64,000 nucleotides of DNA from an uncultured Candidatus Saccharibacteria bacterium (GCA_964605735.1 CAZSDS010000001.1:134771-198770), one strand, 5' to 3'. Positions 2,184-52,470 are shown, counted from the stretch's first letter. Notes: a model not told the origin generated them from the letters alone. Made by a program: numbers and translations.

Positions 2184-3809
2184 ATGGCGAAAGTCGTAAA
2201 GCTGAATAAAAACGACCAATTGGTCGATATAATCAAAAAAATCAAGAGCCTCAAGGGAGATGAGGTGGTTTTCGAATTGCCGGTTGGCTCAGCCGTTTTC
2301 AAGAACCCGCACAACTTAAGCCTGATAAAAAAGAGCGCCGCGGCAATGGGGATAAATTTGATCATCAGGACTGAAGACAAGAACGGACTGTCTTTGGCGG
2401 CAAAAGCAGGATTGTTGATTGACGACGGCAGTGAGCCTGTGAAGCCCAAGATTAGAAGCGTAAAAACCACCAAGAAAGTCAGGTTTGCCGACATAGGCGC
2501 CCAGACAATGCCTCGCGCCACCGGTTCGGTTCCGGTTATGGCTAGCGCAAAAAAAACAGGTTCAGTCAAAGTTCACTCAGAGGATTTGGGGATCGGAAAC
2601 GCGGGTTCAATTAAAAAGAAATTGCCAAGAATCAGCAGCACTTTTTCAAGAGTGTTTGTACTTAGCGTCTTTGTCCTGGTTTTGGCTGTTTTTGGACTTG
2701 CGGTTTTATTGCCGCAGGCGCGAATAACTGTGTATGCCAGGTCAGAGCCTGTGACCCGCGATATTGAGGTTTCAATTGATAAAAATATTCGAACAATAAA
2801 CAGCACGAATCTTACCATCCCAGCAGAACCAATCAGCAAAGAAATTTCACATACCAAAAATTTTCCGGCTACCGGCGTGAAGCTGGACGGCACCAAGGCA
2901 ACAGGTAATATCCAGTTGTACAACTTTACCAAAAACACATTGACTTTGCGCGCGGCAACCACCACCTTGATTGTTGACGGGAAGCGTTACTCATTTGCGC
3001 GGGATGTTACGGGGTTAAGGCCAACTGCCAGAATTGGGGTGGGGAGCGAACAGGAAATTGACGAGTCCAGTTTAATTGCACCTGTGCCGATTGTTGCCCA
3101 GGATATCGGGGCGAACTTCAATATTGGAACTAATGTCCGACTTGAAGTGCAGAACGCGGCCTTGGGACAAGCTGATGTTTATGCAGTGACGCAGGGGCCA
3201 ATCAGCGGCGGCACTTCGACTGAAACGAAAATACTTTCCCAGCAGGATATTGATAATGCAACAACAGCGATGCAGGCTGAGCTGGCTGGCTTGGTTGAAG
3301 CTGAGCTGAAAGGTTCAGTGTCAGGAAATGATCTTAAAATTATGCCAAATGCAGTGACTAGTGAAATTTTGGCAAAGACTGCGAACAAAGAAGTGGGTGT
3401 GGCCACCGAGAATTTTGACATGACCATTATTGCCAGAGTCACAGGTTTGGGATTCAAGGAACAGGATGTTAAAACTTTGGTGTTGGAAAAGATAAATTCT
3501 GTGTTGTCTGAGGATAAATATTTGCCGGAAGACGGCAAGCAGGAACTGACTGTAAACCTCAAATCAGTTGATCTGAACGGGGGGTCAGGGGTACTGGCCG
3601 TGCACTTTGAAACTGTGGCGGCTTACAGGGTCGAGAATACAAATTTGTCGAAAATCCTGGCAGGCAAGAGCGCGCTGGAGATAAAAGAAATTTTGCTGAC
3701 CAAACCGGAGATTGACAGGGTGGATGTAAGATTCTCGCCATTCTTTGTAAACAAAGCTCCGCGATTCAACGGTAAGATTTATATAGAAACAATCGAATCA
3801 CAAAGTTAA
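2184..3809 (+). CDS. hypothetical membrane-anchored protein (541 aa, one internal TM helix)
   Basis: Long ORF with a hydrophobic segment VFVLSVFVLVLAVFGLAVLL; no recognisable catalytic motif. Confidence 0.5.
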   Translation: MAKVVKLNKNDQLVDIIKKIKSLKGDEVVFELPVGSAVFKNPHNLSLIKKSAAAMGINLIIRTEDKNGLSLAAKAGLLIDDGSEPVKPKIRSVKTTKKVRFADIGAQTMPRATGSVPVMASAKKTGSVKVHSEDLGIGNAGSIKKKLPRISSTFSRVFVLSVFVLVLAVFGLAVLLPQARITVYARSEPVTRDIEVSIDKNIRTINSTNLTIPAEPISKEISHTKNFPATGVKLDGTKATGNIQLYNFTKNTLTLRAATTTLIVDGKRYSFARDVTGLRPTARIGVGSEQEIDESSLIAPVPIVAQDIGANFNIGTNVRLEVQNAALGQADVYAVTQGPISGGTSTETKILSQQDIDNATTAMQAELAGLVEAELKGSVSGNDLKIMPNAVTSEILAKTANKEVGVATENFDMTIIARVTGLGFKEQDVKTLVLEKINSVLSEDKYLPEDGKQELTVNLKSVDLNGGSGVLAVHFETVAAYRVENTNLSKILAGKSALEIKEILLTKPEIDRVDVRFSPFFVNKAPRFNGKIYIETIESQS

Positions 3810-16050: not shown

Positions 16051-16434
16051 TGCCTCTTAAAGTAAGCGTGCAATCGCGTCCGCCTTTGGCGGATGAGGAA
16101 AGTCCGAACACGTGGATTGAATGAAGTCTCATGAGTTCATGCAATCATTCGTTGCGGGTAACGCCCGTCGAAAGTAATTTTAGGGATGCGAGCAGTGACG
16201 GTTAAGCAGAGATGCGAGACTATCCAGAGCCGCAAGGTAACGGATAAATCTGATGGTAACATCAGGGTGAAACGGCTAAATTCCAACGAATCAGTGCAAT
16301 ACCGAATAGGGTCCTTTACGGGCCGGGTAGGTAGCTGGAGCTAGTCAGCAATGAGTAGCCAAGAGAGATGATTGCTACACTGCAGGAATGCAGGATAGAC
16401 AGAATTCGGCTTACAGCTTGCTTTTTAAGAGGCA
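16051..16434 (+). ncRNA. rnpB: RNase P RNA (bacterial type)
   Basis: Conserved GAGGAAAGTCCGAACAC (P4/CR-I) at about 16104 and ACAGAATTCGGCTTACAG (CR-V) at about 16399; a P1 stem tgcctcttaaagtaagc / gcttgctttttaagaggca closes the molecule; a terminator hairpin follows at 16440-16470. Confidence 0.85.
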
Positions 16435-29514: not shown

Positions 29515-29516
29515 GT

Positions 29517-30974
29517 ATGGAAATTCTCTGGTTAATTTTAATTGTACTTGCGGGCGGATATATTGCTAAGTGGTTGTTTAGCGTTGCCAAGAGTAGTGGT
29601 AAAACAATTTTATCAAATGAAGAGCTAGTTAAATATGGAATTGGAGCAAGAAGACAATCGCGGAAATTTTTAACAATTGAAAAACCAAATGTAAATTTCT
29701 CAGAGGAAACAAAAAAAGTTCTAAACTTATTGGAAAATACGACTTCTAACTTATTTATTACAGGCAGAGCTGGAACAGGGAAGTCTACGTTACTTAAATA
29801 TTTTCGTGCCACTACTAAAAAGAATTTGGTAGTATTAGCACCTACCGGAGTAGCTGCAGTTAATGTGCAGGGACAAACAATACATTCATTTTTTAAATTT
29901 GGACCGAATATTACACTTGATAAAGTGAGAAAGCGATATGGGGACGAAGCACAAGTTTATAAGAAACTTGAAACCTTAATCATTGATGAAATTTCAATGG
30001 TCAGGGCTGACTTATTCGACTGCTTACAAAAATTTTTATTTTTAAACGGACCGAAGCCTTTTACTCCATTTGGAGGAGTACAGACTGTTGTATTCGGTGA
30101 TCTCTACCAATTACCACCAGTTGTAAAAGAAGAAGAAAAATATATTTTTAATAATCATTATAAAGGACCTTATTTTTTTAACTCTTTATGCTATTCTCAG
30201 GCTAAATTCAAAATCGTTGAATTAACACATGTTTACCGCCAATCTGATGAAGATTTTATTGAAATTTTGGATTCAATTCGGCTAAACCAAGCAAAACAAC
30301 ATCACTTAGATAGGATAAACCAGTGTTTTATTGAGGGATATGAATTGCCAAAAGAAGATTATGTTATTTCACTCGTTACAACAAATAATTCAGCTAGGCA
30401 AATTAATCAGAATAAATTAGATGCTTTGCCTGGTCAAAGTAAATTGTATAGAGCAAAAATAACCGGTGAATTTAAAGATACCAACTTGCCTACAGAAAAT
30501 GAACTATATTTAAAACCTGGTGCCCAAGTCATGTTGCTTAATAATGATTCCAAAAATCGTTGGGTCAATGGCGATGTTGCTAAAGTTATAAGTCTTTCAG
30601 AAGATTCCATTAGAGTTTTGTTTGAAGACAAAACGTTTGATGATATTTCCCTAAACACTTGGGAGATGTCAAGATTTGTTTTTGATGAAGAAGCAAGGAG
30701 AATCAGGTCTGAAGTTATCGGATCATTTACTCAGTTGCCTATAAAATTAGCTTGGGCAGTCACAATTCATAAATCACAGGGCAAAACTTTCGATAAAGCA
30801 GTACTTGACTTCGGATCAGGTAGTTTTGCCACAGGTCAAACTTATGTTGCATTAAGCAGATGCAGGTCACTGTCAGGGTTAGTTTTAAGAACTCCAATTG
30901 CGGAACAGGATATTTTTATAGATAAAAAAGTAGTAGAATATATGTCTGATAATTCAAGCAGAATTAAGGTATAG
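29517..30974 (+). CDS. PIF1-family (RecD-like SF1B) DNA helicase
   Basis: Walker A sequence FITGRAGTGKSTLL; IIDEISMV; VFGDLYQLPPV; TIHKSQGKTFD; markedly AT-rich codon usage compared with secA; starts 2 nt after the secA stop. Confidence 0.8.
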   Translation: MEILWLILIVLAGGYIAKWLFSVAKSSGKTILSNEELVKYGIGARRQSRKFLTIEKPNVNFSEETKKVLNLLENTTSNLFITGRAGTGKSTLLKYFRATTKKNLVVLAPTGVAAVNVQGQTIHSFFKFGPNITLDKVRKRYGDEAQVYKKLETLIIDEISMVRADLFDCLQKFLFLNGPKPFTPFGGVQTVVFGDLYQLPPVVKEEEKYIFNNHYKGPYFFNSLCYSQAKFKIVELTHVYRQSDEDFIEILDSIRLNQAKQHHLDRINQCFIEGYELPKEDYVISLVTTNNSARQINQNKLDALPGQSKLYRAKITGEFKDTNLPTENELYLKPGAQVMLLNNDSKNRWVNGDVAKVISLSEDSIRVLFEDKTFDDISLNTWEMSRFVFDEEARRIRSEVIGSFTQLPIKLAWAVTIHKSQGKTFDKAVLDFGSGSFATGQTYVALSRCRSLSGLVLRTPIAEQDIFIDKKVVEYMSDNSSRIKV

Positions 30975-31182
30975 CAATTAGACTAAAATTTGACTTTTTA
31001 GAAAAAGCGATGTATAAAAAATAAAAAACTATTTACACATTGGAATAAGATTAAAGTTAAATAAAAATATTTATTGCTCGTAGTAAACAAAATCCGCGTT
31101 GACAAGCGCGGGTCTTTGTTTTATATTTGAGACAAGGCGGCGTTTGCCGCTATTTTAATTCTAGCAATAAAGGAGCTAAATT

Positions 31183-31392
31183 ATGGCAAAAAGCGTAAAA
31201 GTAACAAAAGAAAGTGATTCGGGAAGAAATCAAGAATTTATTGATACGAAGTCAGGGCGACATATGGGCAGATCTGACTTTGTGAAGAAGATTGAGGAAG
31301 GAAACTATGACGATTACCATGTTCGGAGGATTAATGGCGTGAAAACTCCAGTTTCTAATCCTGATCATAGCGAAGGAAATAATCTAGACTAA
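31183..31392 (+). CDS. small DUF3892-like protein
   Basis: 69 aa; the C-terminal YHVRRINGVKTPVSNPDHSEGNNLD resembles the DUF3892 C-terminus; SD aaggagc. Confidence 0.4.
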   Translation: MAKSVKVTKESDSGRNQEFIDTKSGRHMGRSDFVKKIEEGNYDDYHVRRINGVKTPVSNPDHSEGNNLD

Positions 31393-31398
31393 TTATTT

Positions 31399-32106
31399 AT
31401 GTCTAAACTAATTTTTGACATAGAAACAGTTGGCGAAAATTTTGATGAACTTGATGAAACCACTCAGGGTGTTTTGACGCGATGGATCAAACAAGATTCC
31501 GAAACTGAAAATGAGTATTTAAGAGCATTAGAAAATCTAAAGAATGGACTCGGGTTTTCCCCTTTAACGGGTGAAATAGTTGCAATTGGTGTATTTGACC
31601 CCGATAAAAATCAAGGAGGTGTTTATTTTCAGGCTCCAGAACAATACATTGCAGACTTTGAAGAAAATGGAATCAAATATAAGCAAATGAATGAAAAAGA
31701 AATGCTTGAAAAATTTTGGGAGATATCTTCAAAGTACCAAGAATTTATAAGTTTTAATGGGAGAGGATTTGATGCACCATTTTTAGCAATCCGATCAGCA
31801 ATCCATAAAATTAAGCCGGCCAAAGATCTTATGGATGGAAGGTATTTGTATCAGCAGAAGAAAGTAACACATATTGATCTGCAGGACCAGCTTTGTTTTT
31901 ATGGATCCGTGCGCCGTAAGGGGAGTTTGCATCTATTCACTCGTGCTTTTGGTATTAAAAGTCCCAAGTCAGAAGGAATATCAGGAGATGATGTTGGTAG
32001 ATTATTTCAAGAAAAAAAATTTGTAGAAATTGCGAAATATAATGCAGGTGACTTATTCGCAACAAAAGAACTTTATGATTATTGGAATAATTACTTAAGA
32101 TTATAG
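31399..32106 (+). CDS. DEDD-type 3'-5' exonuclease (PolB-exonuclease-like / DnaQ-like fold)
   Basis: FDIETVG is Exo motif I; the overall size and FNGRGFD match predicted 3'-5' exonucleases related to the PolB exo domain. Confidence 0.55.
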   Translation: MSKLIFDIETVGENFDELDETTQGVLTRWIKQDSETENEYLRALENLKNGLGFSPLTGEIVAIGVFDPDKNQGGVYFQAPEQYIADFEENGIKYKQMNEKEMLEKFWEISSKYQEFISFNGRGFDAPFLAIRSAIHKIKPAKDLMDGRYLYQQKKVTHIDLQDQLCFYGSVRRKGSLHLFTRAFGIKSPKSEGISGDDVGRLFQEKKFVEIAKYNAGDLFATKELYDYWNNYLRL

Positions 32107-32188
32107 TTGAATATTAGAGCATAAAACTTGTCGTTGCCAAGTTGACGTTTGTTTACTGTGGAGGTAACATCCAGACAGTTCATTCAAA

Positions 32189-32749
32189 TTAAATAATTTT
32201 ATAATATTTTCTGTACCAAGATAGTGTTCTTAAAAGCATAAACCTCTTAATTATTCGGTCTTTGTATTCCCTAGTCGGCAACAAATTACAGAAGTGTGCC
32301 ATTTTTGGATACAGATCAGCAAATACCAGAGGTATAAAAAATAGGCCTACCTTGCGGTAAGCCCCAGTTCCTTGCCCTCTTGATGTTCTTCTTGTGCTCT
32401 TCGTTCGTGATGCATTCGCATTCACCTGCGAGGCGCGCTGCCAGATGCGCATCTCGAATTGCGACTGCGAGCCTGCTCATATCGAGCTTCTTTTTCATAA
32501 ATCCCCCTGATGACACAAGGCCTCGCGAAGAAGCTGGTAAGTAGTTTTCCGTTGTAACATTCCCACGATCTGAAAACTGAGTTGCAGTTCACGTGGAGTG
32601 CTTCCGGCCAACTTGGCCAAGCTTCGCCAGGTGGTCAAAAAGTCTCCGTTTTTGAAGCCTTCCTGTGCTGCAAGGTACAGCTTGATTCTGCGACTGGTTC
32701 GCCACTTACGTATTACTCTAAACACATTCCACCTCCTTTGACCGTGCAT
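32189..32749 (-). pseudogene. possible degraded gene (three consecutive minus-strand ORF fragments in shifting frames, HTH-like segment)
   Basis: Fragments of 84, 66 and 87 aa in three frames; WRSLAKLAGSTPRELQ is HTH-like; GC content is higher than the flanking AT-rich island. Confidence 0.2.
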
Positions 32750-32786
32750 TCTATCTCAAAAAGGCAGGAAAGTCAACCCTAAATAT

Positions 32787-33239
32787 ATGAACTATTTTCT
32801 TATGAAATCTGAGCCTGAGAGTTATTCCATAGACGACTTTCAGCGCGACAAAGAAACAATCTGGACCAGCATCCGCAATTACCGCGCGCGCAATATCATG
32901 CGTGACGAAATGAAACCAGGTGATTTGTTTTTGTTCTACCATTCCATGGCAAAAGACAATGGCGTGGTCGGCATTGGGAAAATCGTAAAAAATAATTTGC
33001 CGGACGAAACTGCTCTTGATAAGAATGACGAGTACTATGACCCAAGAGCCACCAAGGATAAAAACCCCTGGATTGCCCCCAAGGTTAAGTTCGTCAAAAA
33101 GCTTAAGCGAGCCGTAACTTTGGAAGAAATAAAAAAGGACAAGCGTTTCAAAGACATGGTCCTGGTGAAAATCCCAAGACTTTCAGTCCAACCAGTTTCC
33201 AAAAAGCACTTTGACGCAATCGTACAACTAGCTTCTTAA
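32787..33239 (+). CDS. EVE (PUA-like) domain protein
   Basis: MNYFLMKSEPESYSIDDF...WTSIRNYRARNIMRDEMKPGDLFLFYHS is the canonical EVE/DUF55 N-terminus. Confidence 0.85.
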   Translation: MNYFLMKSEPESYSIDDFQRDKETIWTSIRNYRARNIMRDEMKPGDLFLFYHSMAKDNGVVGIGKIVKNNLPDETALDKNDEYYDPRATKDKNPWIAPKVKFVKKLKRAVTLEEIKKDKRFKDMVLVKIPRLSVQPVSKKHFDAIVQLAS

Positions 33240-39888: not shown

Positions 39889-41097
39889 ATGATACAGGAC
39901 AACAATCAACAACAAACTTGGTACCAAAGATACGGTAAGTACATACCCGGCGTTTTGGGCTTGGTGGGTTTGGTTGTGGCCGGATTCATATTCCTGGATA
40001 AATCAGATTCAGATCTTTTGGACGTAATTACAGGCAACAAAATTGTTCCGGTTGCCAACGCTACTGTGGATGAAATCCATACATCTTGTGAAGCCAAAGG
40101 TTCAGGCGGTGACATCTTCGAGTGCTATGCCGTGAACTTCGACACTTACATGCGCTCCAACGGGGGAAGGAAAACTTTAGAGTTGCTGGATCAGCTTCAG
40201 AAAAAAGGCGGATACGTGCAAACCAATTGCCACCCGCTTTCGCATAAAGTGGGTAATATAGCTTTGCATGTGTACGGCTCTGTCCCGGCCGCTGTGCCGG
40301 AATACCTGCCGGTTTGCCATTCCGGTTACTATCATGGCCTGCTTGAAGAATATTTAGGCACCGCTGAAAGCTATGAAAGCGGAGTCGCGGAAGTTTGTGG
40401 CACTCCGGAAACCCAATCCTTCTTTAATTGGTTTCAGTGTACGCACGGACTTGGCCACGGCATAATGCAATTCAGGGACAACGAAGTGCCGGATGCGCTG
40501 AAGGATTGTGACCTTGTTGATCCGGCCAACCAGGCCAGGGAAATTTGCTATGCCGGAGTATTCATGGAAAACATAACCACTGACGAAAAAACCGGCCATC
40601 CAGCCAAGTACATTAAAAAAGAAGATCCGATTTACCCCTGCAACGCAGTGGAGTCTCAGTACCGCAGCGCCTGCTATTTCCTGGCCAGCTCCCAAATCCT
40701 GAAACTCAACGGCTGGGATTTTGAAGACACTTTCAAGCAGTGCGCCAAAGCTGAAGAGCAATATCGCTTCCTCTGTTACCAAAGCCTTGGCCGTGATGTT
40801 TCCGGCTCATCCTTGAACAATGACGCCAGGGTAAAACAGCTCTGCGGCTTGGCAGGCGAAGACACTTATGCCAAGTCTGAGTGTTACTTCGGCGCTGTAC
40901 GTGATTACACCAACAGAGTGGGCGAGTTTGATGAATCCATAAGGCTGTGCAATTACATAGAATCCGAATTTCAACAGCGCTGTTATGAGGCAATTTTCTA
41001 TGACATGGCCCAGTACAAGCAGGGACAGGCGTTTCTTGATGTGTGCGCCAAAATGCCGGACAATTTCAGAAGCCAGTGTGTGGTGCGGCAGCAATAA
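39889..41097 (+). CDS. membrane-anchored cysteine-rich repeat protein
   Basis: N-terminal TM helix; at least 6 repeats of about 37 aa with the pattern C-x9-12-C-Y-x6-[DE] (QCAKAEEQYRFLCYQSLGRD, ECYFGAVRDY, RCYEAIFYD...). Confidence 0.5.
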   Translation: MIQDNNQQQTWYQRYGKYIPGVLGLVGLVVAGFIFLDKSDSDLLDVITGNKIVPVANATVDEIHTSCEAKGSGGDIFECYAVNFDTYMRSNGGRKTLELLDQLQKKGGYVQTNCHPLSHKVGNIALHVYGSVPAAVPEYLPVCHSGYYHGLLEEYLGTAESYESGVAEVCGTPETQSFFNWFQCTHGLGHGIMQFRDNEVPDALKDCDLVDPANQAREICYAGVFMENITTDEKTGHPAKYIKKEDPIYPCNAVESQYRSACYFLASSQILKLNGWDFEDTFKQCAKAEEQYRFLCYQSLGRDVSGSSLNNDARVKQLCGLAGEDTYAKSECYFGAVRDYTNRVGEFDESIRLCNYIESEFQQRCYEAIFYDMAQYKQGQAFLDVCAKMPDNFRSQCVVRQQ

Positions 41098-41497: not shown

Positions 41498-41967
41498 GGT
41501 TGGTGAGCATGTCTGCCAAAAAGCTGAATCACCCGAATCTTTTCCCCGGGCCTCCTCTGCCCAGGCATGAAATTTCTGCCGGAGTTCTGCAAGCTGTTCA
41601 GGTGATTGAAGTTAAGGGGTGTCGGATTTATCTTTTCAAAGCGTTGATTGCCCCGCCTCATCCCAGGGCCAAGGGGGTTATCTTCGCCAGGAAAATCAAT
41701 CTGGCATTCCGGTACTCAGGGTACGAACCGGTGAACAGTAACTTCTTGCCCGAGGCGGTTGAGAGGTTTGATCCAGGCGTAGTCACTACAAACGCGAGAG
41801 TGTTTGCCTTGGATCCAATCAAGTGGGGGCGAGCCCAAGCCGCCATTTTTACGGGTGAAAAGTGGGAGATCGTTTGGGAAGCAGTCAGGCCAGAGCATGA
41901 AAACCTTTTTCTGGTCAGCAAAAGACTGCATCCGTATGCAAGGAGGGTACAGGGTAAATTATTTTAA
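41494..41967 (+). CDS. hypothetical protein (GC-rich), second gene of an overlapping pair
   Basis: ATGA start/stop overlap with the upstream ORF; no recognised domain. Confidence 0.45.
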   Translation: MRLVSMSAKKLNHPNLFPGPPLPRHEISAGVLQAVQVIEVKGCRIYLFKALIAPPHPRAKGVIFARKINLAFRYSGYEPVNSNFLPEAVERFDPGVVTTNARVFALDPIKWGRAQAAIFTGEKWEIVWEAVRPEHENLFLVSKRLHPYARRVQGKLF

Positions 41968-42084
41968 GCAGCTTTGGGCAGCTGCTTTTTTATGCGGCGG
42001 CTGGTTTTCCAGCCGGCTTGTGCCAAAAATAGGGAATTGGTATACTTAGCCAGTAGTTTTTACAAATTTTAGATAAGAAAGAAC

Positions 42085-43428
42085 ATGAAACGAAAAGGCA
42101 TATTTTTCAGGGTATTGGGGATACTGCTTTTGACAGTCGTGGCTGGGGCAATTGCTCTTCCTGACACAAACGTCAATCTAAATTCCGTTAAAATCCCGTT
42201 CGAGAAAAATTGGGATTTGAAACTTGGTCTTGATCTGCAAGGCGGCACTCAACTGGTCTATGAAGCTGACATGAGTGATATCTCGGCTGATGCGCGCGCA
42301 GATGCTTTGAATTCAGCCCGTGATGTCATTGACAGGCGGGTGAACGCGTTCGGTGTATCTGAGCCGTTGGTTCAGGTTTCCGGCGACAACAGAATTATTG
42401 CTGAGCTGGCAGGGGTAAGAGACATAAATCAGGCAATCGAGCTGATTGGTCAAACTCCGTTTTTGGAATTCCGGGAAGAAAATCCCAATCCGCCTGAACT
42501 CACTCCAAATGAAAACGGTGAGGTTGTTGTTGACACTGATTCCATTTTTCTTCCAACCCAGCTAAGCGGCAAACAACTGGAACGCGCAGTTTTGAATTTT
42601 GACCAGACAACTGGCGCCCCTATCGTTGCCTTGCAATTTGATGACGAAGGAAAACAGCTGTTCAGCCAGTTAACGCAAAAAAACATCGGCAAAAGGATTG
42701 CAATTTTTCTTGATGGAGAAATTATTTCCGCGCCAACAGTTCAATCCGCAATCGATAGCGGCGAGGCCATCATCACAAACATAGGGACAGTCAATGAAGC
42801 CAAAGAGCTGGTGACCAGATTAAATTCAGGCGCTTTGCCTGTGCCAATCAAACTCATTTCCCAGCAGAACGTTGGTGCTACTTTGGGTATTGATTCCCTG
42901 CAAAAAAGCGTCATGGCTGGCTTGATTGGGTTCATCATTGTGGCGCTGTTTATGATCATCTACTACCGATTGCCTGGTGTCCTGGCAGTCATTGCTCTGG
43001 TCATTTACACTCTGATTTCATTGGCAGTATTTAAACTTTTCGGAGTGACATTGACGCTGGCCGGAGTTGCCGGATTTATTCTCTCCGTTGGTATGGCAGT
43101 TGACGCCAATGTCTTGATTTTTGAGCGCATGAAAGAAGAGCTGAGGAAAGGCAAGAGCCTTAACCAGGCAGTGGATGACGGATTCAATCGCGCTTGGTTG
43201 TCAGTCCGCGACTCCAACGTCTCGAGCTTAATCACAACTTTCATCCTTGGTTACTTTGGCACAAGCATTATCCGAGGTTTTGCCATCACCCTGGCCATTG
43301 GTATTCTCATCTCCATGTTTACGGCAATTACCCTGACCAGGACATTGCTGAAAATAGCCGCGAGAATGAGTTTCCTGAGCAATGAAAGATTATACGGTGT
43401 AAGAGTAAAGGAGTCAGCAAATGCTTAA
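42085..43428 (+). CDS. secD: protein-export membrane protein SecD
   Basis: Periplasmic domain plus six C-terminal TM helices with the SecD motif (GLDLQGG..., LAGVAGFILSVGMAVDANVLIFER). Confidence 0.95.
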   Translation: MKRKGIFFRVLGILLLTVVAGAIALPDTNVNLNSVKIPFEKNWDLKLGLDLQGGTQLVYEADMSDISADARADALNSARDVIDRRVNAFGVSEPLVQVSGDNRIIAELAGVRDINQAIELIGQTPFLEFREENPNPPELTPNENGEVVVDTDSIFLPTQLSGKQLERAVLNFDQTTGAPIVALQFDDEGKQLFSQLTQKNIGKRIAIFLDGEIISAPTVQSAIDSGEAIITNIGTVNEAKELVTRLNSGALPVPIKLISQQNVGATLGIDSLQKSVMAGLIGFIIVALFMIIYYRLPGVLAVIALVIYTLISLAVFKLFGVTLTLAGVAGFILSVGMAVDANVLIFERMKEELRKGKSLNQAVDDGFNRAWLSVRDSNVSSLITTFILGYFGTSIIRGFAITLAIGILISMFTAITLTRTLLKIAARMSFLSNERLYGVRVKESANA

Positions 43429-44326
43429 TATTATCAAGTATTACAGGGTTTGGTTTGGTATTTCTTTGGTTTTTGCTATTGCTTCCATTATTGCGCTTGC
43501 AGTTTACGGCTTGAATTTTGGCATCGACTTCAAAGGCGGAACACTCAGCCAGTTGAGGATTTCCGAAAATCCTGCCTCAAGTGAGGTTAGAACTGTCCTG
43601 CAAGAGAATGGTTATGAAGGAGCTCTGGTCCAGCCGGGCGATGAAGGGATCTTTATTATCAGAACCGGCCCGCAGGAAAAAGAACAACATGATCAGATGC
43701 TGAAAGTTTTGGACGACAAATATGAAGAAGTTGTTGAAGAGCAATTCACTTCCGTGGGCCCGGTTATTGGCCGCGAATTGGCGAACAAAGCTTTGTGGCA
43801 ACTTTTACTGGTCTCGCTGGCTATCATTCTTTACATTGCTTATGCTTTCAGAAAAGTCACCAAGCCGGTTTCCTCCTGGAGGTTCGGCGTTACCGCGATA
43901 ATCGCATTGCTTCATGACTTGCTTGTGGTTATTGGGGTGTTTGCAGTGCTTGGCCATTTCTTTGGCGTGGAAGTGGATAGTTTGTTCGTCACCGCACTTC
44001 TTACTGTGCTCGGATTTTCAGTGCATGACACAATAGTTGTTTTTGACCGTATCCGCGAAAACCTGAGGGTGCGCGCCGGACAGTCGCTTTCTGAGATAAT
44101 CAACAACAGCATCAGCCAAACCATTGTCCGTTCCATTAACACCACTTTGACGATTGTCTTTGTCCTGGTTGCCCTGCTTCTTTTCGGCGGTGAAACCATC
44201 AGATACTTTGTCCTCGCCCTGTTGTTAGGCGTGGTTGTCGGCACTTATTCTTCCATTTTCATTGCCAGTCCGCTTCTGCTTTCCTGGCATAACTGGGAAT
44301 TAAAAAGAAAAGGCAAAACAGCCTAG
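43421..44326 (+). CDS. secF: protein-export membrane protein SecF
   Basis: GIDFKGGT..., FDRIRE and the SecF TM core; overlaps the secD end; terminator at 44347-44372. Confidence 0.95.
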   Translation: MLNIIKYYRVWFGISLVFAIASIIALAVYGLNFGIDFKGGTLSQLRISENPASSEVRTVLQENGYEGALVQPGDEGIFIIRTGPQEKEQHDQMLKVLDDKYEEVVEEQFTSVGPVIGRELANKALWQLLLVSLAIILYIAYAFRKVTKPVSSWRFGVTAIIALLHDLLVVIGVFAVLGHFFGVEVDSLFVTALLTVLGFSVHDTIVVFDRIRENLRVRAGQSLSEIINNSISQTIVRSINTTLTIVFVLVALLLFGGETIRYFVLALLLGVVVGTYSSIFIASPLLLSWHNWELKRKGKTA

Positions 44327-44389
44327 CAGTATCAGATATTCCTCTAAAACCCGCCAAAAGCGGGTTTTTTGCGTTGCGGTTAGTGCTCC

Positions 44390-44418
44390 TTGACAAGCTG
44401 AGGCATTTGTGCTATACT
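44390..44418 (+). promoter_or_regulatory. sigma70-type promoter
   Basis: TTGACA (44390-44395), 17-nt spacer, TATACT (44413-44418); it lies inside the longer listed ORF, which argues for the ATG at 44437 as the real start. Confidence 0.6.
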
Positions 44419-44436
44419 TTAGACAATTTCAAGAAT

Positions 44437-45558
44437 ATGTCAGAGACTAACGACACAAAGCCAAGCATTTTGGACGCAATAATGGGTTCTCAAACTCAGA
44501 CCAATCTGAACAATTTTGAGCCTGCTCGGATTGTCGGTAACCTCCTTGCCCAGCTAAAGGACAGAGACCGCCAGATTGTGGTCAAGCGTTTTGGATTGGA
44601 AGGCCAGCAAGTCGAGACTCTTGAATCAATCGGACAGAAATACAACTTGACCCGGGAACGCGTCAGGCAAATCGAAAAAGATTCAGTGGCGTTTCTCAAG
44701 AAAAAGAACGTCAAAGACATGCAGGAATCGTTGCAGTTGATTTTTGACACTGTTGTTGAACATGGGAATATTGCCAGTGAGGAGTTCTTGATGAAAACCA
44801 TGCTCCTTAACAAGCCGGAAACCCGTGAATATTCTGCGCTTAAGTTTTTGATTTCATTGAGCGAACAGCTTAAATACCACAAAGAAACCAACCAATATTA
44901 TTCAGCCTGGTCTGTAATTGGCTTTAATATGAGCAAATTGGCTGAAGTCACTGATGAGTTCGTGAAAATTTTGCGTTCTTTGGGGAAAGTCGTCACTCAG
45001 GAAGAGCTCTACGCTAAGTTCAAGGAGACTGACTACTACAAAACACATGCTCCAGAGTTGTCAGATCGCGTTTTGCGCAGTTACCTGAACATTGCAAAAA
45101 TTATTCAGGTTAATCCGTTCAACGAAATTGGCTTAAAGGATTGGTCAGAAGTGAAGCCCCGCGACGTAGGCGATAAGGCTTATTTGGTTTTAAAACATCA
45201 TGGGAAACCGGAGCATTACTCAGTAATCACCAAAATGATTAATGAACACCGTTTTGATGACCGCACTGCATACCAGGAGACTGTTCACAATGAACTGATT
45301 AAAGATGATCGGTTTGTTCTGATTGGCCGGGGCATTTATGCATTGACCGAGTGGGGTTATAAGAAGGGTGTTGTTGCCGACGTGATCAAAGAAGTGATTG
45401 AAAGCTTTGGCAGGCCTTTGTCGCGTGAAGAAATCATTAATGAGGTTATGAAACGCCGCCAGGTTAAAAGAAATACCATCCTGGTTGGCTTATCCAACAA
45501 GAAATATTTCCAGAAGGTCGGGAAAGACAAGTACGATTTAGCAGAAACACAAATCTAA
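44437..45558 (+). CDS. DNA-binding protein with an N-terminal sigma-70 region-4-type HTH and a long C-terminal domain of unknown function
   Basis: LKDRDRQIVVKRFGLEGQQVETLESIGQKYNLTRERVRQIEKDSVAFL matches sigma-70 region 4 / LuxR-like HTH. Confidence 0.6.
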   Translation: MSETNDTKPSILDAIMGSQTQTNLNNFEPARIVGNLLAQLKDRDRQIVVKRFGLEGQQVETLESIGQKYNLTRERVRQIEKDSVAFLKKKNVKDMQESLQLIFDTVVEHGNIASEEFLMKTMLLNKPETREYSALKFLISLSEQLKYHKETNQYYSAWSVIGFNMSKLAEVTDEFVKILRSLGKVVTQEELYAKFKETDYYKTHAPELSDRVLRSYLNIAKIIQVNPFNEIGLKDWSEVKPRDVGDKAYLVLKHHGKPEHYSVITKMINEHRFDDRTAYQETVHNELIKDDRFVLIGRGIYALTEWGYKKGVVADVIKEVIESFGRPLSREEIINEVMKRRQVKRNTILVGLSNKKYFQKVGKDKYDLAETQI

Positions 45559-45562
45559 GCAA

Positions 45563-46891
45563 TTGCAAATGTTTGATGAAACTTTCGGTGACACCCTGCG
45601 ATTAGTCGAAATTATCTTAGTAGACTATTACGGGTGGATTCCCTTTGTTTGTCTATTTATATGGATCGGGTACCAGCTCTGGCTGGAACGGCAAATAATA
45701 AAATATCTTTCCACCATCAAGTGGGTGTTTTTGGAAGTTCGCGTAGATGAGTTGAACGAAAAATCCCCAGTGGCAATGGAACAGATATTTGCTTCGCTCC
45801 ATGCCATGATGCAAAACTTTACGCTTGGTGAAAAATGGACCGGGAGAACAGCTTTGCATTTGTCCGCGGAAATCGTCAGTATTGGCGGACGCGTTTCATA
45901 TATTTTCAAAGTTCCTGAGAGATACCGAAATCTGCTGGAAAGCGCTTTGTTCGCGCAATACCCGAAAGCAGAAATCAGAGAAATTCAGGATTATCTGGCC
46001 AACCTCCCGCGCAATTATGATCCGCAGACATCTGAGTTTGAAATGTGGGGGACCCAGCTGAACAAACGCGCAGACAACGCTCTGCCTATCCGAACCTACA
46101 AGCAGGCAGACCAGTTCTTTGAACATTCAGAACAGAAGACTACTGTTGATTCTCTGGCAGGCATTTTGGAAGTTATGAGCAATATTTTGCCGCATGAATT
46201 GATGGCAATTCAAATTGTCATCAAACCCCTTAATGATGACTGGAAAAAGAGCGGCGTGGACCTGGTTAGCAAGATGAAAGGAGTCCCGCCAAAGGCCAAA
46301 CCTCCTGGGTTGTTTGATGTGATTTTCGTGCAAGGACCTGGCATGGTTTTGGATTTATTGCTTGAGGGGCTTGGGTTGAAAGGTGAGACCGAGCCTAAAA
46401 AGGAAGAAAAGCCTCAGCCTCTGACGCAGTCCATGACTGATTCGGAAAAATTTAATATTGATGCGGTGGTGGTTGGCCTGAGCAAGCTTAGCTATGAAAC
46501 CAAATTCCGGTTGCTGTATTTGGCGCCCAAAGACAAGTTCAGTAAAGGCATGCGCATCCCGGAAATTTTGGGCGCGTTCAGAAATTTCGACAACCCCCAG
46601 CTTAACGGATTGAAGCCTGACAGCGCGAAAGTCACAACAGACGCCAGCTTTAAGCTGTTCCAGAACCTTGAACAGCCTTGGCTTGACCATAAAATCAAGG
46701 TCCGCAAAAATAAATTTTTGAAGTGGTTTAAGGATCGCGGGCATTGGGAGGGTTCGGGTAAAACTATTTTCAATACGGAAGAGCTTGCGACTTTATTCCA
46801 TTTTCCACAGGCACCGAATGCGCGCGTTTCCCAGCTTGAGCGCGTTAATACCGTTAAGTCTGCCCCTCCTATTGACCTTCCGGTCGGATAA
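45563..46891 (+). CDS. hypothetical membrane protein (N-terminal TM helices), possible partner of the downstream ATPase
   Basis: IILVDYYGWIPFVCLFIWIGYQLWL hydrophobic N-terminus; a soluble domain follows; ends 22 nt before the ATPase gene. Confidence 0.5.
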   Translation: MQMFDETFGDTLRLVEIILVDYYGWIPFVCLFIWIGYQLWLERQIIKYLSTIKWVFLEVRVDELNEKSPVAMEQIFASLHAMMQNFTLGEKWTGRTALHLSAEIVSIGGRVSYIFKVPERYRNLLESALFAQYPKAEIREIQDYLANLPRNYDPQTSEFEMWGTQLNKRADNALPIRTYKQADQFFEHSEQKTTVDSLAGILEVMSNILPHELMAIQIVIKPLNDDWKKSGVDLVSKMKGVPPKAKPPGLFDVIFVQGPGMVLDLLLEGLGLKGETEPKKEEKPQPLTQSMTDSEKFNIDAVVVGLSKLSYETKFRLLYLAPKDKFSKGMRIPEILGAFRNFDNPQLNGLKPDSAKVTTDASFKLFQNLEQPWLDHKIKVRKNKFLKWFKDRGHWEGSGKTIFNTEELATLFHFPQAPNARVSQLERVNTVKSAPPIDLPVG

Positions 46892-46912
46892 CATTAAAAT
46901 ACACAGTCTCTT

Positions 46913-49018
46913 ATGATAGCATCAGACAACGACATTACGCTGTTTGCCAAAACCAACTTCCGAAACAGGGAAGTGCCTTTTGGTATCCGCCGGGATGACC
47001 GCCGCCGCCACATGTACGTGATCGGAAAGACGGGTATGGGAAAAACCACCCTGATCGAAAACATGGTTGTGCAGGATATTATGAATGGCCATGGCGTGGC
47101 GTTTGTAGATCCGCACGGAGACTCAGTTGAAAAGATCCTGAATTATATACCGGCGAATCGCATCAATGATGTAATTTATTTAAACCCGGCTGATGTTGAT
47201 TTCCCAATTGCATTTAACCCGCTGGAAGCGGTAGATCCAAAGCACAAGCATCTCGTTGCTTCCGGTTTGATGGGCGTGTTTACCAAAATCTGGGCCGGTG
47301 TCTGGTCTCCCAGGATGGAATACATTTTACAGAACACCATCCTCGCGCTTTTGGATTCACCCGGCAACACCATGTTGGGGGTGGCCCGCATGTATGTGGA
47401 CAAAGCTTACCGCAAGAAAATCGTTGACAACATCAAAGATCCTGTTGTTAAGTCATTTTGGGTTGATGAATTTGCCAATTACCAGGACAAGTTCCGTACA
47501 GAGGCCGTGGCTCCGATCCAAAACAAGGTTGGCCAGTTCCTGTCCAACGCCATCATCAGAAACATAGTTGGCCAGACCAAAAGCACAATAGACATGCGCA
47601 AAATCATGGATGAAAAGAAGATTTTGCTTCTGAATCTGTCCAAAGGACGCATCGGTGAGGACAGCTCTGCTTTGCTTGGCGCCATGATCATCACCAAGCT
47701 TCAGCTGGCCGCCATGAGCCGCGTTGACGTGCCGGAAGAGGAACGCCCGGACTTTTACCTTTACGTTGATGAATTCCAGAACTTTGCCACGGAGTCATTT
47801 GCCAGCATTTTGTCTGAGGCCCGCAAATACCGTTTGAACCTGATTGTCGCGCACCAGTACATTGGCCAGCTTGTTCAGGATAAAAACACCATTGTCCGGG
47901 ATGCTATTTTTGGGAACGTGGGGACTATGATCACGTTCCGTGTGGGCGCTGACGACGCCGAGTTTTTGGAAAAGGAATTTGAACCAGTCTTTACTATGAA
48001 CGATTTAGTCAACCTTTCCAAGTACAGCATTTATCTTAAATTGATGATTAATGGCGTGGCTTCCAACCCTTTTTCAGCCACAACCCTGCCGCCTATTGCT
48101 GAGGCTACTGGAAACGTGGACAAGGTTATTCGCGTCTCCCGCGAGCGTTATGCTGTGCCGCGGCAGATAGTTGAACAGAAAATCAGCAAGTGGTTAGGCG
48201 CTGAATTCCACGCGGAAGCCGCTAAAGCTGAAAGCGATTCAATGGATGAGGAGGGGGTTTCAGATGAGCTCCGTTTCAGGCACGCACAGCCAAAACCATC
48301 TGTGGTCCCAACTCCAGCAAGGACAGCTCCAGTGATGCAATCAGTGTCGGTTCCGGCCGAGCCGATTCCGGTTTCAACCCGGAAAGAACCGGTCTCAACT
48401 CCGATTACCAAACCTGAGCCGAAAAAAGAGAATAAACAGGAATCCAAGCCAGTGGAGCAAAAAGGAAAGCATTCGTCTAAGAATCATGACAAGCATGCAC
48501 GTTCCCATCAACCGCAAGAGCGCAGGTCAGAACAGTCAGACAGGCATCCAGGAAGGCGTTCCGGAGACAAGAAGAAGCACGAGAACCCTATCTGGGAAAC
48601 AGTCACCAAGCTCACCACAGACAAGATCAAAAGCAGTGTCGAGAAAACCAACCAGGCTTTGGATACCTTAAGCAAATCGCTTCAGGACTCCGTGGTTATT
48701 GACAAGCCTAAATTCACGCCGGCGCCAAAGATAAAAGCTCCCGAGCCGGTCATTCCTGCCAAGCCACGGACACAAGAAACTCATGTCATTGAAAAACCTG
48801 TCCAGAAGCAGGAAAAAAATGACTTCCTGGATCTTGGTTTTACGGAATTGCCAGAACCGGAACATCAAGAGGCTTTGCCGCGCCATTTCAGCGAGCCTGA
48901 ACTTCCTTCACATGATGTGCACCCGGATAACCCTGCAGAATCACCGCACGAGAATATTCAAGACCTTATTTCGCGGCATGGCGAGATAAAGCCGGGGCAA
49001 ACCATCAAGTTTGATTAA
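46913..49018 (+). CDS. VirD4/TrwB/TraG-type type-IV coupling-protein-like ATPase with a roughly 270-aa disordered Pro/Lys/Glu-rich tail
   Basis: HMYVIGKTGMGKTTLIENMV...GVAFVDPHGD (Walker A followed by D-P-x-G-[DE], as in the TrwB/VirD4 nucleotide-binding domain); Walker B FYLYVDEFQNF; no N-terminal TM segment. Confidence 0.7.
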   Translation: MIASDNDITLFAKTNFRNREVPFGIRRDDRRRHMYVIGKTGMGKTTLIENMVVQDIMNGHGVAFVDPHGDSVEKILNYIPANRINDVIYLNPADVDFPIAFNPLEAVDPKHKHLVASGLMGVFTKIWAGVWSPRMEYILQNTILALLDSPGNTMLGVARMYVDKAYRKKIVDNIKDPVVKSFWVDEFANYQDKFRTEAVAPIQNKVGQFLSNAIIRNIVGQTKSTIDMRKIMDEKKILLLNLSKGRIGEDSSALLGAMIITKLQLAAMSRVDVPEEERPDFYLYVDEFQNFATESFASILSEARKYRLNLIVAHQYIGQLVQDKNTIVRDAIFGNVGTMITFRVGADDAEFLEKEFEPVFTMNDLVNLSKYSIYLKLMINGVASNPFSATTLPPIAEATGNVDKVIRVSRERYAVPRQIVEQKISKWLGAEFHAEAAKAESDSMDEEGVSDELRFRHAQPKPSVVPTPARTAPVMQSVSVPAEPIPVSTRKEPVSTPITKPEPKKENKQESKPVEQKGKHSSKNHDKHARSHQPQERRSEQSDRHPGRRSGDKKKHENPIWETVTKLTTDKIKSSVEKTNQALDTLSKSLQDSVVIDKPKFTPAPKIKAPEPVIPAKPRTQETHVIEKPVQKQEKNDFLDLGFTELPEPEHQEALPRHFSEPELPSHDVHPDNPAESPHENIQDLISRHGEIKPGQTIKFD

Positions 49019-49093
49019 CAAGGATTCCCGACGCCGCAAGGTTGATCGGGAGTCTTATTTATGGTAAAATATTTTTTGTTTAAGACTAATCCA

Positions 49094-50173
49094 ATGACCA
49101 GAGCAAACAAGAAAAAAACTGTTGTAGTGGGTCTCTCCGGTGGGGTAGACTCCTCGCTTACTGCAGCTTTGTTGAAGAAACAGGGCTATTTTGTTATTGG
49201 CGTTTTTATGAAGAACTGGTCTGATGATTTTGGCGATTATGGCTGTACTTGGGCTGAGGATGCGGAAGATGCGCGCAAAGTCGCACAGACTTTGGATATA
49301 CCATTTTACGTTTGGAATTTTGAAAAAGAATATTATGCCAAGGTGGTCGAATACTTTTTGAAGGAATATGAGGCGGGTCGCACTCCAAATCCCGATATAT
49401 TGTGCAACAGCGAAATCAAATTTAAAGTCTTTTTGGAAAAGGCTATGGGTTTGGGTGCGGATTTTGTGGCTACTGGGCATTATGCCCGGGTGCGTAAAAA
49501 GGAAGGCGCTTACCAGTTGCTGAAAGGCATTGACCCGTCTAAGGACCAGTCATATTTTTTGTATAGGTTGACCCAGGAACAGTTGGGCAAGGTTTTGTTT
49601 CCCATTGGCGAATATCATAAGAGCGAAGTGCGGGAACTGGCGAAGAAATTCAAACTCCCAACTTATGCAAAAAAGGATTCGCAAGGCATTTGTTTCATCG
49701 GGAAAATCAATGTTACTGAGTTTTTGAAAGAGCATATAAAGGCTGCTGCAGGTGAGATTGTTACAGCCACTGGCCAGGTGGTGGGCAAACACTATGGCTT
49801 GCCATATTACACCATTGGCCAGCGCGAGGGGATTGGAATTGGTGGGCAGGGTCCGTATTATGTAGTCGCAAAGCAATTTGATTCAAACAAGCTCCTTGTT
49901 ACGAACAATAAGAATGATCCCGGGCTTTGGAAAAGGGAGTTTACGGTGGGTGATATTAGCTGGACCGGAAATATACCTCAAATGCCAAGCAAATTGGGGG
50001 TTACCATCAGATACCACCATCCTGATTGCCAGGCCTTGATTAATTCATCGGAAAATGGTATACTTAATATACGTTTTGATCAACCGCAAAGAGCGATAAC
50101 ACCAGGACAGTCTGCAGTCATTTATGACGGCGATGTATGCCTGGGTGGAGGAGTGATCGAGGAAATTCTTTAG
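49094..50173 (+). CDS. mnmA: tRNA-specific 2-thiouridylase MnmA
   Basis: PP-loop VVGLSGGVDSS; catalytic Cys region DILCNSEIKF; GHYARV. Confidence 0.9.
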   Translation: MTRANKKKTVVVGLSGGVDSSLTAALLKKQGYFVIGVFMKNWSDDFGDYGCTWAEDAEDARKVAQTLDIPFYVWNFEKEYYAKVVEYFLKEYEAGRTPNPDILCNSEIKFKVFLEKAMGLGADFVATGHYARVRKKEGAYQLLKGIDPSKDQSYFLYRLTQEQLGKVLFPIGEYHKSEVRELAKKFKLPTYAKKDSQGICFIGKINVTEFLKEHIKAAAGEIVTATGQVVGKHYGLPYYTIGQREGIGIGGQGPYYVVAKQFDSNKLLVTNNKNDPGLWKREFTVGDISWTGNIPQMPSKLGVTIRYHHPDCQALINSSENGILNIRFDQPQRAITPGQSAVIYDGDVCLGGGVIEEIL

Positions 50174-50181
50174 GAGGGACC

Positions 50182-50454
50182 ATGAGTGATCCGTCAGCTA
50201 GTCGGCGTAGCAGTCGCATCGGTTCACGTGCCAAGTACGTTGGCGCGCGTCGGTTTCGGCGGGTCAGAAGGTCTGCAAGTCCCCAGGGCAGCTTGATCGA
50301 GTATCAGGTTTCCCCGGATGCTGTGAGCTTCGATGAAGTGCTCAGAAACACGGACACTGCTCGTCTTCCTCAGCAGACCGACATGTCTCCACTTGCGGAC
50401 GGCGCCTTCCCTTGCTTTGAAGACGCCCTCAATTGCAAGAATGGCTACCACTAG
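50182..50454 (+). CDS. small Arg-rich hypothetical protein (GC-rich)
   Basis: AGGAGGG lies 4 nt before the ATG; a terminator-like hairpin caccccgaccg...cgatcggggtg at 50461-50500. Confidence 0.35.
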   Translation: MSDPSASRRSSRIGSRAKYVGARRFRRVRRSASPQGSLIEYQVSPDAVSFDEVLRNTDTARLPQQTDMSPLADGAFPCFEDALNCKNGYH

Positions 50455-50552
50455 CCGCAATCACACCCCGACCGTTTTTGAAACGATCGGGGTGTTCATT
50501 TTGTTGTTGTTTTGCTATAATATTGGTGAATTATTTAGTAAAACTAGGCAAT

Positions 50553-51065
50553 ATGAATATAAAAGACCTGCCATTTGGCGAGAACGAGAAGTTCAATGTA
50601 GTGGTGGAAATCCCTCAGGGAAGCCAGGATAAGTATGAGTATGATGAAAAGCTTGATGTTATTAAGCTGGATCGCGTGTTGTTCAGTTCGCAAACTTACC
50701 CTGCCAATTATGGATTCATACCCCAAACGCGCGCAGAGGACGGCGACCACACTGATGTGGTTTTGATTACAACCAATCCGATCAATTCAGGATTCATTGT
50801 TACTGCCCGCCCAATCGGATTTATGGAAATGATTGATGGCGGAGAAATCGATAATAAGATTATTGCCGTGCCTACTGAAGACCCAAGGTTCAACGATATA
50901 CAAAGCCTCGATGACTTGCCGGAGCATAAACTGAAAGAAATCCAAAACTTTTTCGAGACTTATAAACTGCTTCAAAACAAGAAAGTGGAAGTTAAGGGTT
51001 TTCAGGGCAAAGACCGCGCCATTCAGGAATTGGAACAGACAAAAGCAGCATACTCAAAAGAATAA
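50553..51065 (+). CDS. ppa: inorganic pyrophosphatase (family I)
   Basis: DKYEYDEK...YPANYGFIPQT...DGDHTDVV metal-binding motifs of family-I PPase. Confidence 0.9.
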   Translation: MNIKDLPFGENEKFNVVVEIPQGSQDKYEYDEKLDVIKLDRVLFSSQTYPANYGFIPQTRAEDGDHTDVVLITTNPINSGFIVTARPIGFMEMIDGGEIDNKIIAVPTEDPRFNDIQSLDDLPEHKLKEIQNFFETYKLLQNKKVEVKGFQGKDRAIQELEQTKAAYSKE

Positions 51066-52394: not shown

Positions 52395-52470
52395 TGGGGT
52401 GTAGCCAAGCGGTAAGGCAGTGGACTCTGAATCCACCATTTCCTAGGTTCGAATCCTAGCACCCCAGCCA
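52395..52470 (+). tRNA. tRNA-Gln (anticodon CUG)
   Basis: UGGGGUG acceptor stem; D-arm GCCAAGCGGUAAGGC; anticodon stem-loop GUGGA-CUCUGAA-UCCAC; T-arm CUAGG-UUCGAAU-CCUAG; CACCCCA-G-CCA at the 3' end. Closely resembles E. coli tRNA-Gln. Confidence 0.85.

Follow-up and report, generated by a model that had tools for sequence, protein, structure and literature searches.

Three co-directional open reading frames (ORFs), as read from the sequence, fill positions 44374-49018 on the + strand of a 64,000-nt stretch of DNA from an uncultured Candidatus Saccharibacteria bacterium (GCA_964605735.1, CAZSDS010000001.1:134771-198770; the whole stretch is referred to below as the window). The second and third of these genes, which code for a protein of family DUF8128 and for an ATPase, are in our reading the two halves of a single enzyme: a chromosomal, vertically inherited patescibacterial type IV coupling protein of the VirD4/TrwB family that is made of two polypeptides and, on balance, probably serves a type IV secretion system (T4SS). 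The identity and architecture of this protein are well supported, while its substrate and its link to a T4SS are what we infer. A preliminary description of the locus, made from the sequence alone, had listed the same three ORFs on the + strand, all of which are present, and had proposed that a coupling protein was split in two behind a gene for a helix-turn-helix (HTH) protein. The features of the pair are listed here (aa, amino acids).

45569..46891, + strand: DUF8128 protein of 440 aa (gene-caller start ATG 45569; 442 aa from TTG 45563)
45605..45688, + strand: hydrophobic, aromatic-rich helix or hairpin, the presumed membrane anchor (aa 15-42 of the 442-aa ORF; from Kyte-Doolittle hydropathy and flanking charges)
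46862..46888, + strand: C-terminal motif APPIDLPVG of the DUF8128 protein (family consensus PPxxLP), the junction to the ATPase in fused proteins
46913..49018, + strand: ATPase of 701 aa, read from the sequence
46913..48220, + strand: aa 1-436 of the ATPase, its TrwB/VirD4-type domain; nucleotide-binding, interrupted by an all-alpha insertion (about aa 105-235)
47024..47050, + strand: Walker A motif GKTGMGKTT, aa 38-46 (G38, K39, G41, M42, G43, K44, T45 and T46 invariant in alignment A3)
47753..47785, + strand: Walker B motif FYLYVDEFQNF, aa 281-291, invariant in alignment A3
48221..49018, + strand: disordered P/K/E-rich tail of 266 aa (12% P, 11% K, 10% E)
48983..49015, + strand: extreme C-terminal motif EIKPGQTIKFD (family pattern roughly [LI][KRQ]PG[QE]x[IV][KR]F)

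The motor ATPase and its separately encoded front half

The TrwB/VirD4 signature that had been read in the 701-aa ORF was found again, with the motif VDPHGD downstream of Walker A, and three Pfam families matched the protein above their gathering cut-offs: TrwB_AAD_bind (45.4 bits against a cut-off of 20.5, aa 28-345), T4SS-DNA_transf (30.9 against 20.1) and TraG-D_C (24.9 against 22). NCBIfam returned the TraD and VirD4-like CD1115 families, and a search of PDB sequences gave TrwB as the best match (E 2.5e-6) as well as DotL (E 9e-4). VirB4-type models stayed below their cut-offs (AAA_10, 15.6 bits; P-loop_TraG, 16.7). The motor was also modelled with AlphaFold2 (AF2; predicted local distance difference test, pLDDT, 77; predicted TM-score, pTM, 0.82). 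Foldseek placed TrwB first among the structures similar to this model (E 5e-10, TM-score 0.60-0.62), followed by Cag-beta, DotL and HerA, and the VirB4 C-terminal domain came only at rank 48. A helical block at about aa 105-235 lies between strands E87-90 and E237-241, where TrwB has its all-alpha domain. Thus, both hidden Markov models (HMMs) and the predicted fold support well a motor of the VirD4/TrwB family. The alternative assignment to HerA/FtsK was checked by the same two means and rejected: HerA structures rank below TrwB in TM-score, and DUF87 falls just under its Pfam cut-off.

As the preliminary description had stated, the ATPase has no transmembrane (TM) anchor of its own; a Kyte-Doolittle scan of the 701-aa protein revealed no hydrophobic segment. 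The same description had attributed N-terminal TM helices and an unknown soluble domain to the protein encoded immediately upstream. A presumed N-terminal hydrophobic anchor is indeed present there, although as one stretch, modelled as two helices (H2-22 and H25-51), rather than as several clear TM helices. The charges flanking this stretch are negative before it and positive after it, which suggests that the large soluble domain of about 390 aa that follows lies in the cytoplasm.

The protein can now be assigned to a family, DUF8128 (PF26449), which is precomputed for an identical protein (P0001) and for most of the listed homologues. Our local Pfam scan of the protein encoded at 45563-46891 matched neither DUF8128 nor any other family, and a literature search for "DUF8128" found no paper. 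An AF2 model built from 62 diverse sequences (pLDDT 87.6, pTM 0.81) has two N-terminal helices followed by alpha/beta domains. When PDB was searched with this model by Foldseek, the 13 best matches were all TrwK, the VirB4 protein of R388 (E 9e-5 to 3e-3, probability at least 0.98), and the chains that followed were unrelated oxidases with E 1e-2 or worse. A search of BFVD retrieved fused phage homologues first (Bacillus phage G gp156, E 1e-16), then phage G gp155, which is VirB4-like by Pfam (E 4.5e-7), and a "component of type IV transporter system" (E 4.2e-4). As the DUF8128 protein lacks a P-loop and the Foldseek list holds no further RecA-like ATPase, what is matched is most likely the N-terminal domain specific to VirB4. 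The TM-scores of the model to VirB4-type structures are low (0.30-0.38, with 0.30-0.36 for TrwK). A Pfam scan of all 62 members of the DUF8128 alignment gave no link to VirB4, a profile search of PDB sequences showed no VirB4 similarity, and profile-profile alignment (hhalign) with phage G gp155 and with TrwK was negative. Since all sequence profile tests were negative, the likeness between DUF8128 and VirB4 is a structural one only.

In TrwK the N-terminal domain comprises residues 15-400; VirB3, a membrane protein, wraps around it, and contacts between VirB4 molecules are made through it. The predicted DUF8128 fold resembles this domain and would thus be something other than a mere TM anchor. 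The arrangement, too, is like that of VirB4 (TrwK) with VirB3: about 390 aa, to be compared with TrwK 15-400, stand ahead of an ATPase and behind hydrophobic helices. Unlike in VirB4, there is no detected sequence similarity, and the attached motor is VirD4-type. As judged from sequence and models, then, the pair may be described as a VirB4-like front half combined with a VirD4-type motor.

Fusions, phage relatives and conserved gene order

An exhaustive search of cluster representatives retrieved 1,541 relatives of the DUF8128 protein at E <=1e-3. Gene neighbourhoods were compared in the best 80 relatives from a scan of one genome per species, which held at least 575 relatives. The ATPase gene is located immediately 3' of the DUF8128 gene in 68 of these 80 loci; two loci end at a contig edge, and in the other ten a different gene comes next. 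No masked sequence was found in these ten loci, all of which have room downstream. The only one of them that we read, L041 (5917-8586), carries after DUF8128 a gene that, named from its sequence, is glycosyltransferase-like, so that its ATPase must lie elsewhere; the DUF8128 protein of this locus has a long extension that repeats PPxNLP at its very end. DUF8128 without a following ATPase occurs in some lineages, e.g., Falkowbacteria. In an Uhrbacteria locus (L010, 6259-9701), DUF8128 is followed by two tandem TrwB_AAD_bind ATPase genes, the second of which has a tail of only 29 aa.

The two halves also occur as one chain. In the natural fusion P0317 (956 aa) the C-terminal motif of DUF8128 runs straight into the N-terminus of the ATPase (junction "...APTNLPIEGSEEDLTLFAKTNF..."), and in locus L061 both parts form a single ORF. 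Residues P436, L439 and P440 of the junction motif are invariant in alignment A2 of DUF8128 proteins; a loose form of PPxxLP stands at the C-terminus of DUF8128 in 39 of the 80 ORFs, and long forms have the motif twice.

Single-chain relatives are likewise found in phages. The PHROG family phrog_5156 (824 positions) is matched by the DUF8128 protein of the window at positions 69-200 and by the ATPase at 397-815 (E 1.8e-60), and hhalign aligned the DUF8128 profile with Bacillus phage G gp156 (probability 97.8%, E 7.5e-13, residues 17-320) and with SPO1 gp27.4 (probability 76%, residues 78-357). All three are homologues of both halves, like the pair in the window; unlike it, the phage forms are fused in a single chain, and identity to them is about 20% when the fused P0317 is used as a query. 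Because the DUF8128 match in gp156 starts at residue 17, there is little room for an N-terminal hydrophobic helix in that protein. The phage records of gp156 and gp27.4 hold no annotated function. In phage G (L083, 1827-7391) the gene order is TrbL/VirB6-like gp153, VirB4-like gp155 and then gp156; in SPO1 (L082, 3908-9418) it is an actin-like (ALP) partition protein gp27.9, gp27.4 and the Replic_Relax (relaxase-like) gp27.3. Lytic Bacillus phages thus carry plasmid- or T4SS-like modules around the fused homologue, and we found no explanation of the role of these modules in a phage.

The DUF8128 gene is, from these sequences, the missing N-terminal part of the coupling ATPase. The idea of a protein split in two was right, given the fusions (P0317, L061, gp156, gp27.4, phrog_5156) and the adjacency of the two genes in 68 of 80 loci.

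The succession of hydrophobic N-terminus, VirB4-like domain and ATPase mirrors VirB3-VirB4, and phage G gp155 and gp156 are adjacent, as if they were paralogues. One may therefore ask whether the pair is a second, split VirB4-like assembly ATPase that energises an envelope structure, e.g., VirB2-like pili, rather than a substrate receptor. We regard this as improbable: by HMM and by fold the motor is nearer to TrwB, Cag-beta and DotL than to the VirB4 C-terminal domain, the TraG-D_C region and the long tail are typical of coupling proteins, and a dedicated VirB4 exists in Patescibacteria already.

For the DUF8128 protein and the ATPase alike, the closest homologues come from Candidatus Doudnabacteria, a patescibacterial lineage to which the host is assigned, in agreement with the patescibacterial host named in the preliminary description. 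Although some of the 80 loci are labelled generically or unreliably (e.g., "uncultured Gammaproteobacteria"), at least nine candidate-phylum groups are represented among them: Doudna-, Uhr-, Magasanik-, Falkow-, Sung-, Terry-, Portnoy-, Buchanan- and Moranbacteria. Recurrent neighbours are the HTH gene (50 or 51 of the 80 loci, depending on the count), secD/secF (50), mnmA (22) and secA (12), and cell-wall and tRNA-synthetase genes recur as well. The order secD-secF-(HTH)-DUF8128-ATPase is found in most of the loci. The pair is a core, vertically inherited gene set beside secDF across Patescibacteria and not a stray gene, and the earlier label "orphan" understates this conservation. No T4SS gene lies nearby.

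That the genes are a leftover of an integrated conjugative element or a prophage, as might be thought since coupling proteins mostly travel on mobile elements and homologues exist in Bacillus phages, is hardly credible. The G+C content of the three-gene region (0.435-0.478) is unremarkable against the 0.34-0.51 seen across the window. The flanks are housekeeping genes without an integrase or a relaxase, and the same gene order recurs in the nine or more groups above. Searches with the DUF8128 protein of the window (tblastn against plasmids and phages) returned nothing, and IMG/VR viral contigs scanned with the DUF8128 profile held no relative. With plasmid, phage and IMG/VR searches empty, an origin of the patescibacterial form in a mobile element was rejected.

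Function of the pair and competing readings

The motor shares with TrwB (R388), VirD4, TraD, DotL and Cag-beta the Walker A and B motifs, VDPxGD, the all-alpha insertion, the TraG-D_C region and a flexible C-terminal tail, although its identity to TrwB is only about 16%. It differs from the classical TrwB-type proteins in the anchor: these carry two N-terminal TM helices in the same chain, whereas in the present case a protein of its own, 440 aa long and with a large additional domain, provides it. Classical coupling proteins adjoin a relaxase or a mating-pair formation cluster; the present pair is chromosomal, has housekeeping flanks and is far more conserved. A parallel to a detached anchor is found in pIP501, a plasmid of Gram-positive bacteria, where, according to a review, TraI, a small protein with two TM segments, is the proposed anchor of the soluble coupling ATPase TraJ. 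As described there, TraJ/TraI is like our pair in combining a soluble coupling ATPase with a separately encoded anchor; it is unlike it in that TraI has no counterpart of the 390-aa VirB4-like domain and in that pIP501 is a conjugative plasmid with a relaxase.

The low-complexity end of the ATPase, put at about 270 aa in the preliminary description, measures 266 aa and is rich in P, K and E as stated. Among 68 ATPase ORFs (including that of L001, which is the window's own contig, and one contig-end ORF without a tail) tail length varies from 0 to 358 aa, and the tail sequence is not conserved. The extreme end, in contrast, often is: the pattern [LI][KRQ]PG[QE]x[IV][KR]F occurs within the last 13 aa of 30 of 64 tails, where 0.09 would be expected from shuffled sequences, and only twice elsewhere in the tails. 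A second motif, ISLxEAxK, is present in 15 tails. Both patterns were defined post hoc on the same tails, and the excess of the KPGQxIKF type over shuffles is very large. A third subset of tails ends in an amphipathic helix resembling LRxALxESLxKK. The tail of F-plasmid TraD docks TraM via its extreme C-terminus, which ends in Phe. By analogy, the conserved end of the tail may be a docking peptide for a partner or a substrate.

We propose the following mechanism. The motor would bind its DUF8128 partner, as the single-chain forms joined at PPxxLP elsewhere lead one to expect, and the pair would form a membrane-bound hexamer, as TrwB does. The tail with its KPGQxIKF-type end could serve for docking of a partner or substrate, as the tails of TraD and DotL do, and ATP would then drive the hand-over of a DNA or protein substrate to a conduit in the envelope. 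This conduit would probably be the patescibacterial VirB4/VirB6 system encoded elsewhere in the genome, with the VirB4-like module as a docking surface.

Several observations weigh against this proposal, in addition to the low TM-scores and the negative sequence comparisons of the front half given above. None of the 80 loci has a VirB4, VirB6, relaxase or other T4SS gene within about 6 kb. Searches of the window with TrwK, TrwM, TrwI, phage G gp153 and gp155 and SPO1 gp27.3 detected no VirB4, VirB3, VirB6 or relaxase, and neither did Pfam scans of its large ORFs; the statement in the preliminary description that VirB4, VirB6 and relaxase are absent from the window was thus correct. In a survey of 3,035 Patescibacteria genomes, VirB4 was present in 2,417, while 5,713 VirD4-like homologues were spread over 2,918 genomes (96%) and only 148 of the 5,713 were near virB4 (Quiñonero-Coronel et al. 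2025). The motor is also conserved to a degree that, from the sequences, seems unusual for a coupling protein. Median identity to the window proteins is 66% for the motor, 56% for SecD, 48% for MnmA, 47% for SecF, 37% for the HTH protein and 31% for DUF8128.

The remaining points come from transposon sequencing of Southlakia epibionticum (Wang et al. 2023). In this species an essential gene, SEML1_0294 (349 aa, Sigma70_r4 and HARE-HTH, annotated "RpoS"), adjoins SEML1_0293, a 921-aa protein with TrwB_AAD_bind at 402-719. The order of HTH gene and coupling ATPase is the same as in the window, and in SEML1_0293, as in the fused form, about 400 aa precede the TrwB_AAD_bind region and a tail follows; being a single 921-aa chain, it differs from the pair here. 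SEML1_0293 is thus apparently the fused counterpart of our pair, an orthology that rests on architecture and synteny. It was classed as non-essential, and its normalised reads fell from 5,817 to 2,940 and 1,372 over the time points, when those of neighbouring genes stayed flat; the T4SS cluster of Southlakia, which is without a recognisable coupling protein, was essential, as was the FtsK-like paralogue SEML1_0142 (Wang et al. 2023). The link to the epibiotic lifestyle that the preliminary description had suggested is therefore not supported so far: the T4SS cluster is essential and SEML1_0294 is essential on its own, and with a non-essential counterpart of the pair a role in epibiotic growth is unproven.

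The main rival of the T4SS reading, which we consider rather unlikely but still a serious contender, is that the two-piece ATPase was co-opted for a T4SS-independent core function at the membrane, such as DNA uptake or processing or the handling of another polymer, alone or with housekeeping envelope machinery. VirD4-like homologues are near-universal, commoner than VirB4 and rarely near virB4 in the survey numbers above, the motor is more conserved than SecD, and synteny with secD-secF, and with secA in 12 loci, is kept across distant classes. The authors of the T4SS survey themselves considered exaptation possible and mentioned no partner protein (Quiñonero-Coronel et al. 2025). However, conserved order in small genomes need not mean shared function, and partners of the T4SS type are suggested by the VirB4/VirB6-like and relaxase-like genes that accompany the phage relatives. 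Chromosome translocation is probably handled by the essential FtsK-like SEML1_0142. The Southlakia counterpart was dispensable in co-culture, so that the function is non-essential there; this phenotype fits neither a T4SS role nor a T4SS-independent one well.

The Southlakia counterpart further adjoins a CRISPR-Cas9 locus, and the ATPase of the window matches mad8 of the MADS anti-phage system in PADLOC (E 1.6e-16, 58.7 bits) and, weakly, HerA and DndH. An ATPase of a defence system, mad8-like or HerA-like, is nevertheless a very improbable reading. MADS is an eight-gene operon whose other genes are absent here, the context is one of conserved housekeeping genes and not a variable defence island, and the mad8 match is most simply explained by a shared P-loop superfamily; the literature gave no description of mad8 domains.

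A broader and frankly speculative view, to which we give little weight, would be that such pairs form a third, hitherto unrecognised lineage of ATPases of the T4SS type. Having kept an N-terminal domain of VirB4 type on a motor of VirD4 type, this lineage would be an evolutionary intermediate between VirB4 and the coupling proteins. Among Patescibacteria it would have turned into a nearly universal chromosomal machine that has no relaxase and works outside classical conjugation, perhaps moving DNA or proteins at the epibiont-host interface, with its conserved C-terminal peptide as a handle for a partner.

A large part of bacterial diversity consists of Patescibacteria. They are host-dependent, and theirs is the only T4SS so far described as essential to the survival of its owner. 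The orphan coupling-protein homologues whose role was left open by the 2025 survey gain a defined architecture here, that of an enzyme in two pieces, one of them VirB4-like, with natural fusions, a conserved putative docking motif and a conserved neighbourhood. Through Southlakia the pair is tied to a mutant phenotype already on record in a species amenable to genetics, and the union of a VirB4-like front and a VirD4-like motor is of interest for the divergence of the two T4SS ATPase families.

The HTH gene, operon signals and other features of the window

The first gene of the locus and the signals around it are as follows.

44346..44370, + strand: terminator-like hairpin 3' of secF, AAAACCCGC-caaaa-GCGGGTTTT, with more T after it; read directly from the sequence
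44390..44418, + strand: sigma-70-type promoter TTGACA-17-TATACT with a TG extension; 11/12 matches, the top promoter-like site in 41900-50400
44482..45558, + strand: HTH protein of 358 aa (gene-caller start ATG 44482; Pfam domains)

In the HTH protein, sigma-70 region 4 is followed by a helical middle part, HARE-HTH and, at the C-terminus, a winged helix. The sigma-70 region 4-like domain of the preliminary description was recovered by Pfam (Sigma70_r4, E 3.7e-12), together with HARE-HTH (E 7.5e-11). In Pfam, NCBIfam and a PDB sequence search the protein matches sigma factors in region 4 only, the rest being HARE-HTH and winged helix; since region 2 is not matched, it is not a sigma factor. 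It looks like an uncharacterised RNA-polymerase-associated factor that is widespread in Patescibacteria, and it may have an essential role of its own. Its gene lies directly 5' of DUF8128 in 50 of the 80 loci according to the presence table, or in 51 by clustering.

The promoter assigned to this gene in the preliminary description is real, but it falls inside the ORF as described there, the start of which had been placed too far upstream; the true start must therefore be further downstream. Besides ATG 44482, chosen by the gene callers, ATG 44438 is an alternative and the earlier TTG 44374 is unlikely. The 358 aa encoded from ATG 44482 agree with ortholog lengths of 346-349 aa, and 44482 is the most likely start.

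The locus is flanked by secD/secF at 42085-44326 and by mnmA and an inorganic pyrophosphatase gene at 49061-51065. The hairpin at 44346-44370, which a simple terminator scan did not list, separates the HTH gene from secF. The gaps between the three genes are only 4-21 nt, which suggests, along with the promoter and the terminator-like hairpin upstream, that they probably form one operon under the control of the 44390-44418 promoter. Another promoter-like site, TTGACC-17-TAAAAT (46872-46900, 10/12 matches), is located just 5' of the ATPase start and could be an internal promoter.

Elsewhere in the window, the gene directly after secA codes for a PIF1-like helicase whose N-terminal part includes a hydrophobic stretch (26839-30974). 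The G+C content falls to 0.34 at 30001-32000, and the segment at about 32110-32790 has no long ORF and no Rfam match. Two large ORFs are without a Pfam match, one of 541 aa (2184-3809) and one of 402 aa (39889-41097); the product of the latter is rich in cysteine and carries a hydrophobic helix at its N-terminus. Just two RNA genes were found in the window, one for RNase P RNA (bacterial class A, 125.8 bits) at 16058-16429 and one for tRNA-Gln(CTG) at 52395-52470.

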